DNA of 64,000 nt from Dictyostelium discoideum (taxonomy: Eukaryota), in contig CM000152.2 of the NCBI GenBank assembly GCA_000004695.1, positions 1,024,001 to 1,088,000 on the forward strand, given 5' to 3'. The position numbers and the translations under genes were made by a program. Every line of letters begins with the position of its first letter. Position 1 is the stretch's first letter. Under the pieces are notes generated by a model. That model was given only the letters and a program-made list of their open reading frames with translations, did not search any database and had not been told where the DNA came from. This document shows, one piece after another, positions 44,880 to 45,300 of this stretch.

Positions 44880-45300
44880 ATATCTTCCAATGTATGAGAT
44901 ATGTGTTACTTTTCGTATTATTCCAAAAACATTTCAAAATCACTATAGTCAACCATTCATTCACTTTGAGTTGTATTTCCTTGTGAAATAATGGAAAAGA
45001 GATATGATAAACTTGTTATCATATCTCGATACGAATCAGTTGGCTTTTTAAAACATCCTTTATCTAATGTGCTTTATCGTGCAATTGCTGCTGAATCTAC
45101 CTCTATTGATATTGAAACTCCCACTGATTACGAAATCCAAAAAAAAAATACTATTCTGGTAAAAGCAAAGTCATGTGGTCAAATTTCATTGTGAGGTATG
45201 CACTAGATTATACAGATTATTGTTACTACATCCTGAGGGATTCCCAGGTTCCGTTCATGATCAAATATATACTATAAAAGACCAAAATAGAGAGCCATAA
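44880..45300 (+). mobile_element. Degenerate Harbinger/PIF-type (DDE_Tnp_4) transposase remnant, frameshifted and truncated
   Basis: Locally GC-richer island. Frame 0 gives DKLVIISRYESVGFLKHPLSNVLYRAIAAESTSIDIETP..YEIQKKNTILVKAKSCGQISL, and after a +1 shift near 45190 ..VCTRLYRLLLLHPEGFPGSVHDQIYTIKDQN* follows. PGSVHD and I-A-A-x-x-T-x-I-x-I-x-x-P correspond to the GWPGSVHD and IGAIDGTHIxIxxP motifs of Harbinger transposases. Confidence 0.4.

Follow-up and report, generated by a model that had tools for sequence, protein, structure and literature searches.

A dead, rearranged relic of a PIF/Harbinger-type transposon in a CBM49-like gene array of Dictyostelium discoideum

The window analyzed here, a 64-kb stretch of the Dictyostelium discoideum AX4 genome (assembly GCA_000004695.1, contig CM000152.2, positions 1,024,001 to 1,088,000 of the forward strand), contains at positions 44880-45300 a short region that had been read, from the sequence alone, as the relic of a transposase. 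The question that this locus raises is what the relic derives from: a mobile element, a host gene that descends from one, or a chance resemblance put together from broken reading frames. A transposase relic is indeed present at these positions, and it belongs to something far larger that includes pieces on the minus strand. We conclude that the DNA from 43955 to 45873 (1.92 kb) is, with high probability, a dead and internally rearranged copy of a class II transposon of the PIF/Harbinger superfamily, bounded in its intact form by terminal inverted repeats (TIRs).

Translation of the three forward frames across 44780-45420 revealed a series of motifs on the plus strand, arranged as a DDE_Tnp_4 transposase would have them. 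These are LLYWKQYLP (44863-44889), a segment that begins with MEKRY at 44991, AIAAESTSI (45081-45107, the first catalytic position, with E in place of D), YYSGKSK (45149-45169), PGSVHD (45244-45261, in which the second catalytic D is retained) and RKHDSFP (45325-45345). The sequence-only reading had named a PGSVHD, an IGAIDGTHI-like and a LIALRY-like segment, and these are present as PGSVHD, AIAAESTSI and LLYWKQYLP, respectively. Three frames are involved rather than the two adjacent frames it described, and in place of a single frameshift near 45190 there are frame-breaking indels at ~44951, ~44976-44985, 45138-45149 and 45167. The stop it placed at 45297 is a TAA at 45298-45300, where relatives have CAA (Gln). 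We called the lesions by base-by-base alignment to an open copy at another D. discoideum locus (L002). In addition to the stop, they comprise a 1-nt deletion at ~44951, indels at ~44976-44985, an in-frame insertion of 15 nt at 45015-45029, an insertion of 2 nt within an A-run (45138-45149), a 1-nt deletion at 45167, an in-frame deletion of 15 nt at 45258 that removes the residues LKIAD, a 10-nt deletion at ~45345, and a GAC to GAA change (D to E) at the first catalytic residue. With at least four frameshifts plus a nonsense codon in this exon (exon 2, as shown below), no intact open reading frame (ORF) remains, as had been stated. An interpretation of the frame breaks as introns was ruled out: compared with open copies they prove to be indels of 1-2 bp and a premature stop, and the remaining exons (1 and 3) are encoded on the opposite strand.

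The translation used for profile searches was stitched together across frames with the expected motifs in mind, and unstitched searches served as independent support. Against the PF13359 (DDE_Tnp_4) profile, which the earlier reading had suggested as a check, stitched exon 2 scored 24.8 bits (E 1.9e-5), a value equal to the gathering score; single unstitched ORFs of the window had no PF13359 match on their own. A protein search returned five Dictyostelium proteins. Among these were P0001 of D. discoideum, which is 77% identical to the exon 2 of the window, and P0002 of D. firmibasis, which is 63% identical to it and is labeled 'DDE Tnp4 domain-containing'; both carry PF13359. When searched onto the window by tblastn without any stitching, P0001 matched with an E-value of 8.5e-43 and P0006, a member of a divergent subfamily, with one of 1.6e-21. 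The identification as a Harbinger/PIF-type DDE_Tnp_4 relic is borne out by the profile match, the identity to P0001 and the unstitched tblastn match. The N-terminal fragment of the window copy gave a weak match to the helix-turn-helix (HTH) profile HTH_Tnp_4 (PF13613; 14.5 bits, E 0.028).

The transposase gene of this family has three exons and specifies 327 amino acids, with an N-terminal HTH-like segment followed by the DDE_Tnp_4 domain. Its catalytic triad comprises the D of AADSTSI, the D of PGSVHD and the E of YVENFF, and is intact at L002, at L003 and at L008, a locus of D. cf. discoideum. In the L008 copy, GT..AG introns of 112 and 142 nt can be spliced out to leave an uninterrupted 327-residue ORF with the D-D-E triad intact. 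Exon 3 is clipped in the public gene models: as determined by tblastn, L001 (the D. firmibasis locus), L002 and L003 encode LGDRAYISLPNFVVPHKRSK...HNNFVSSNRVYVENFFLKINHFK within intron 2 of these models, and the fuller relatives carry ILGDKAY...N..R..(I/V)E.FF..LK.FK. In the models of P0002 (L001 10814-10988), P0001 (L002 10798-10924) and P0004 (L003), about 55 codons (GDRAY...VENFF...FK) are thus treated as intron, and the current annotation thereby hides the catalytic glutamate. The clipped models score 32-34 bits against PF13359; with exon 3 restored, the scores rise to 73.2 bits (L001) and 80.0 bits (L002), covering positions 2-157 of the 158 in the profile. On the transposase criterion the family, judged by these sequence features, qualifies as PIF/Harbinger.

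The family is small. Among 1.84 billion representative proteins, a profile search identified 15 relatives; of those whose source was looked up, the nine that carry an organism name are all dictyostelid (from the D. discoideum complex, D. purpureum, D. firmibasis and Polysphondylium violaceum). UniProt automatically labels a few dictyostelid proteins 'DDE Tnp4 domain-containing', and a search of PDB chains with the transposase sequence found nothing relevant. Most copies in D. discoideum are pseudogenes. The D. firmibasis gene has its three exons on one strand (L001 10001-11375); all three are open, but the catalytic E has become K (AYVKNFF), of the terminal repeats only the right one can be recognized, and a partner gene of the kind described below is absent. 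From its sequence this copy could be a fossil at an early stage of decay or else a candidate for domestication. Divergent transposase subfamilies, ~30-50% identical, are represented by P0006/P0019 and P0011 of D. cf. discoideum and P0013 of P. violaceum. One identical protein of a divergent subfamily occurs at two D. cf. discoideum loci, a distribution that hints at further recently mobile relatives.

A full-length family member, together with its TIRs and target-site duplications, was the other thing that the earlier reading had proposed to look for. Complete copies were found at four non-syntenic loci:

L002 (D. discoideum): TIRs at 7657-7689 and 11416-11448, element of 3.79 kb
L003 (D. cf. 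discoideum): TIRs at about 7438 and 11752
L008 (D. cf. discoideum): 2410-6987, 4578 bp, both TIRs, partner and transposase genes
L009 (D. cf. discoideum): 2569-6987, 4419 bp, both TIRs, partner and transposase genes

These four copies define an element of 3.8-4.6 kb with 33-nt TIRs (AAATTTTATGAAAAAATGAAAAGTTGGTGTAAA) and T-rich subterminal tracts, and at each locus the inverted pair of repeats encloses the block of homology. L008 and L009 are 93-98% identical to L003, and L002 and L003 have 3.5 kb in common, including a divergently transcribed gene upstream of the transposase gene. In each of the four complete elements the TIRs enclose this partner gene, which is transcribed divergently from the transposase gene, is multi-copy, and encodes a protein of ~340-360 amino acids. 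Similarity among the elements ends exactly at the AAATTTTATG tip, and all eight outer flanks are mutually unrelated; apparent homology past the TIR tips in some alignments was rejected, as it consisted of low-complexity poly-T/A matches. Immediately outside the tips, all four complete elements have a 3-bp direct repeat, which is AAT in L002, L003 and L008 and ATT in L009. A TAA register for these flanks was also tried and fits only three of the four elements, whereas the AAT/ATT register fits all four. The canonical Harbinger target duplication is TWA and the usual second ORF is the Myb-like ORF1. The search for TIRs and flanking repeats succeeded in finding both, although the flanks read A-W-T and not TWA. 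By analogy with characterized PIF/Harbinger elements, the TIRs would be bound by the transposase, probably with assistance from the partner protein; the element would then be excised and reinserted at A-W-T sites, with 3 bp duplicated in the process.

The L002 contig contains other repeats. A ~145-nt inverted repeat pairs 5284-5425 with 11484-11629, and a distantly related Harbinger-like gene with internal stops (VLGDSAY...RRVYVEQFFGRL) occupies 4185-5216, in a transposon-rich contig end in which hAT-like (Dimer_Tnp_hAT, ZBED1 RNase-like) and RVT genes are also present.

Relative to the collinear element in L002, the window copy has the block order A' B C', in which the first and last blocks are inverted, and the same pattern is obtained by comparison with L001, L003 and L008. 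Its parts are as follows:

43955-43987, plus strand: X1, a solo 33-nt terminal repeat in right-end orientation, with one mismatch to the TIR consensus
43991-44077, minus strand: exon-1 remnant, reading MVNS, then an in-frame stop at codon 5, then PRKKQMTQPNLMLYSFGLEPDIID; exon 1 has lost its final ~20 codons
44078-44816, minus strand: inverted intergenic (divergent promoter) region of the element
44330-44364, no strand: (TTTAA)7 array, one arm of an inverted pair internal to the element
44671-44710, no strand: (TTAAA)8 array, the second arm of that pair, also internal to the element
44857-45357, plus strand: exon-2 remnant, with the HTH-like segment, the first catalytic position (D to E), YYSGKSK and the second catalytic D (PGSVHD)
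45358-45507, plus strand: intron-2 remnant and the first ~12 codons of exon 3, ending ...YISSPNF at 45487-45507
45508-45802, minus strand: inverted 3' part of exon 3 with ~75-130 nt of 3' flank (tblastn E 8e-18)
45803-45840, plus strand: A-rich subterminal tract directly before the terminal repeat X2
45841-45873, plus strand: X2, a 33-nt terminal repeat in right-end orientation, with zero mismatches to the consensus, followed by AAT

Each block was placed by alignment at both the DNA and the protein level. In the first, 43966-44816 corresponds to L002 9224-10113 in inverted orientation (81%), that is, to the upstream region and the first ~113 nt of exon 1. Likewise, 44278-44813 matches 2595->2058 of the L008 reference (83%; intergenic region, antisense) and 43975-44125 matches 2906->2762 (exon 1, antisense), while residues 1-34 of P0001, P0002 and P0004 map by tblastn to 44077->43976 with E-values down to 2e-10. 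The second block, 44752-45507, is direct and runs from intron 1 through exon 2 and intron 2 into the beginning of exon 3, at 81% identity to L002; 44760-45507 equals 2977-3738 of the L008 reference and L002 10176-10960. The start of exon 3 ends in a poly-T run, at which the third block begins. Here, 45438-45802 matches 4173->3810 of the L008 reference (76%), and the inverted L002 segment 11032-11389 matches the exon-3 block at 45460-45802 (86%). On the minus strand of this block, VSSNCVYVENFFLKINHFKIIST with the catalytic E is encoded at 45798->45730 and is followed by a frameshift and then by IVLILCMLADLEETYNDGF... at 45701->45582, the interval to which the C-terminal 40 residues of the relatives map by tblastn.

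The two pentanucleotide arrays, which had been thought possibly unrelated to the relic, sit inside the inverted intergenic block and recur at the same position in other copies: the (TTTAA)7 array has counterparts at L003 9390, L002 9314 and L004 9352 (L004 being a further locus considered below), and the (TTAAA)8 array has one at L003 9697. Because they occupy the same place in L002, L003 and L004, we assign the arrays to the element. Three tandem units of ~42 nt (TTTTTTTTTATTAATAGAAGGAAATAATTATGAATTT) at 44074-44204 lie directly upstream of the transposase start codon in element orientation; they are also present in L004, are unalignable to the L008 reference, and suggest that the promoter region of the transposase gene expanded in a particular lineage.

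What remains in the window is far from a working element. The copy lacks the final part of exon 1 as well as ~70 nt of exon 3 and ~330 nt of the 3' region, and the partner gene (33-2058 of the reference) is absent, as tblastn of the partner protein onto the window gave no match. The absence of a partner ORF from this copy had been correctly reported. The lack of a Myb-like partner likewise holds for the window, but complete members of the family do carry a second, divergent gene. With respect to the D-D-E triad, the first D is changed to E, the second D is kept, and the E (in VYVENFF) is encoded on the opposite strand (45783-45742) in a broken ORF. The absence of a partner gene, the broken exon 2, the D to E change, the inverted exons and the terminal repeats that point the same way would together leave the window copy incapable of transposition; since both terminal repeats have the same orientation, it should be immobile even in trans. 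Elsewhere in the 64-kb window we found no second copy, second exon 2, further TIR or derivative resembling a miniature inverted-repeat transposable element.

At its outer tip X1 directly abuts antisense exon 1, near nt 113 of that exon, and host spacer DNA lies to the left of X1; we regard 43650-43926 as host DNA because it matches array spacers in strain ACTFIW. Read on the minus strand, the junction is ...GATAAT/AAATTTTATG, which has the same AAT/TIR signature as genuine element ends. The junction looks like a joint made by the transposase, and would fit either a nested insertion or aberrant transposition. The scrambled structure is not an assembly artifact, because an independent assembly of the same locus from strain ACTFIT (L006) has the same structure at 99.88% identity over 8.5 kb that include the relic.

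How the window copy may have arisen is suggested by another rearranged copy, present in the same genome (strain ACTFIT). This copy, at L004 8168-10587 (the same locus as L005), lies beside TRAF/MATH and PKS genes and consists of an inverted duplication of exon 2 around an exon 1/upstream block, forming a palindrome with arms of ~730 nt and a spacer of ~950 nt; it is annotated as two divergent 107-residue 'genes' (P0003 and P0005). The window and L004 have 1.6 kb in common at 89.7% identity. They also have in common four derived characters, namely the A'/B junction, a deletion that corresponds to L002 10962-11029, the D to E change and the loss of LKIAD. L004 retains both another exon-2 arm, in inverted orientation, and a proper terminal repeat on the far side of that arm. 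It is therefore probable that the common ancestor was a long, imperfect palindrome, a composite of head-to-head form that would have been copied to two sites. Two partial copies would first have been joined head to head, bringing the inverted upstream region and exon 1 against intron 1 and exon 2. In the lineage of the window, an inversion in place would then have turned around the exon-3 block, the inner breakpoint of which (L002 11032) falls at the deletion junction common to L004 (L002 10962/11029). One arm of the palindrome would also have been lost, leaving a single TIR, flipped and joined to exon 1 at an AAT.

Comparison of strains places the relic in its genomic setting. The tandem array of seven small secreted CBM49-like genes spans 43097-56505 and includes DDB_G0278553 and DDB_G0278559; its members lie at 43100, 47315, 49324, 51380, 54443, 55294 and 56128 and are all on the minus strand except the gene at 55294-55524. 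The gene at 43097-43468 (minus strand) is 100% identical to DDB_G0278553 of D. discoideum AX4. The relic lies in the first spacer of the array, between two of its members. In strain ACTFIW (L007) the array is present with unchanged gene order beside the same flanking 2-oxoacid dehydrogenase gene, and in the 16.7 kb of this locus tblastn found no transposase match and no TIR was identified. Orthologous anchors bracket ~2.2 kb of extra DNA in the window relative to L007, within which the 1.92-kb relic lies. The relic is therefore present in AX4 and in ACTFIT (L006) and absent in ACTFIW. An empty site could not be aligned at the base level between the window and the L007 spacer, which is too AT-rich and diverged, and anchors and length arithmetic were used instead. 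It had been suggested that a transposon fossil may have helped to seed the rearrangements of this gene cluster. This idea fails, because the array exists in ACTFIW without the element and because the paralogs, which are only ~40% identical to one another in protein sequence, must be far older than the relic. The relic does account for the extra ~2 kb and the odd repeats of this one spacer, where it is now an inert fossil.

The description of the site as a GC-richer island was accurate: GC content is 30.3% across the exon-2 stretch (44854-45375), compared with 9-15% in its flanks and 22% in the window as a whole. The GC-richest kilobases of the window are 37001-38000 (40%) and 41001-42000 (36%), the latter overlapping the 2-oxoacid dehydrogenase E2 gene that L006 and L007 also carry.

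Could the relic be something other than a dead transposon copy? That the similarity is a chance or compositional artifact of motif-guided frame stitching is so improbable that we set it aside. It is true that the stitched sequence just reaches the Pfam gathering score (24.8 vs 24.8 bits) and that single ORFs have no PF13359 match, but the unstitched tblastn matches (E 8.5e-43 for P0001 and 1.6e-21 for P0006), the DNA identity of 81-90% to other copies over 0.8-1.6 kb and a base-by-base alignment that reveals simple indels in an otherwise conserved ORF refute this explanation. A more substantive question is whether the locus holds a decaying copy of a domesticated host gene like HARBI1, a transposase-derived nuclease recruited for a cellular function, instead of the remains of a mobile element. 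The D. firmibasis copy at L001, with its open exons, missing partner gene and one recognizable terminal repeat, would suit such a gene, as would a family so tiny that it yields 15 matches among 1.84 billion representatives. Nevertheless, four copies have both TIRs and matching 3-bp flanks in unrelated surroundings, a single genome has copies at non-syntenic positions that are 93-98% identical, strains differ in whether they carry the window copy, and most D. discoideum copies are pseudogenes; moreover, the K that replaces the catalytic E in D. firmibasis fits decay as well as domestication. We consider domestication very unlikely.

The remaining alternative accepts a transposon origin and differs from our reading in history only, not in the identity of the sequence: the window might contain fragments of two or three independent insertions of family members in opposite orientations, nested or adjacent and trimmed by deletions. 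The outer tip of X1 meets exon 1 at an AAT, just as expected of an authentic insertion end, L004 has minus-strand and plus-strand partial copies head to head, and the exon 2 of the window is nearer to the plus-strand copy of L004 (89.7%) than to the minus-strand one (84.7%). Yet the absence of a second exon 2 or a further TIR from the 64-kb window means that extensive deletions would be needed anyway, and the inner breakpoint of the exon-3 block, at a junction common to L004, fits an inversion in place within one copy. On balance we think several insertions unlikely, though a real contender. Several observations also temper our own reading of the locus as a single, internally rearranged transposon copy. 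We infer the mobility of the family from non-syntenic copies that are 93-98% identical and from the open ORF of L008. Likewise, we only infer that the 3-bp flanks are target-site duplications, no empty site having been aligned at the base level; as all eight flanks are A-W-T, the middle base alone discriminates a duplication from an extension of the repeat (four of four, p ~0.06). The partner protein has no Pfam match and its AlphaFold model, with a mean confidence score (pLDDT) of 31.5, is unusable for a fold search, so that it is no more than a candidate counterpart of the Myb-like ORF1 typical of Harbinger elements. P0001 scores 21.7 bits against HTH_Tnp_4, under the cutoff of 27, although the position and order of the segment are right. 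The end of the window copy at ~45800-45873 fits L008 4504-4578 (87%) and 76->1 (90%) about equally well, and the order of rearrangements given above is a reconstruction, for which a nested insertion trimmed by deletion would be equally possible.

Taken together, these observations lead us to suggest, tentatively and at somewhat less than even odds, that the relic belongs to an uncatalogued, dictyostelid-restricted lineage of PIF/Harbinger elements that may still be mobile in D. cf. discoideum, where three full copies are 93-98% identical and one has an open, spliced transposase of 327 residues, that would duplicate A-W-T on insertion and whose partner protein would be unrelated to the Myb-like ORF1. 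Under this proposal, the AX4 copies would record aberrant junctions made by the transposase, such as the TIR tip inside exon 1. In the literature on dictyostelids we found no description of Harbinger/PIF elements, Glockner et al. 2001 and Repbase lying outside this comparison, and we provisionally regard the family as undescribed for Dictyostelium. If our reading is correct, a TIR-bounded PIF/Harbinger family would add a classical superfamily to the Dictyostelium mobilome. The laboratory strain would hold only dead, scrambled copies of it and the wild sibling species D. cf. discoideum an intact-looking one. The family would also be a candidate for a naturally occurring cut-and-paste system in an organism in which genetic work depends on insertional mutagenesis.

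How does this family compare with known systems? As in the PIF/Harbinger elements of maize (PIF), Arabidopsis (Harbinger) and zebrafish (Harbinger3_DR), the transposase has a DDE_Tnp_4 domain with a D-D-E triad and a preceding HTH-like segment, here a below-threshold match. Further points of agreement are the TIRs, a 3-bp flanking repeat with a central W, the presence of two genes per autonomous element and decay into immobile fragments. Typical Harbinger target-site duplications are 2-3 bp in length (PMC3627910). The Dictyostelium elements differ in having flanks that are A-W-T (AAT or ATT) rather than T-W-A, a second gene without a detectable Myb/SANT/trihelix domain, a short transposase (327 amino acids) and a distribution that appears to be restricted to dictyostelids. 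With HARBI1 they have the PF13359 fold family in common, and the D. firmibasis copy resembles an immobilized single gene; unlike HARBI1-like domesticated genes, however, the family is multi-copy, TIR-bounded, non-syntenic, polymorphic for presence and mostly pseudogenized, with no sign of a conserved host function. Within D. discoideum, a review groups the DNA transposons into three main families (Tdd, DDT and Thug), with transposases said to be unlike any known enzyme (PMC5633606), and Tdd-4/5 encode integrase-like enzymes of the Ginger type (PMC2836005). The family identified here resembles Tdd-4/Tdd-5, DDT-A/B/S and thug-S/T in its host, in being of class II with TIRs, and in its low copy number and fragmentation. 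What would set it apart from the Tdd, DDT and thug elements, as judged by their published descriptions, is its clear match to PF13359.

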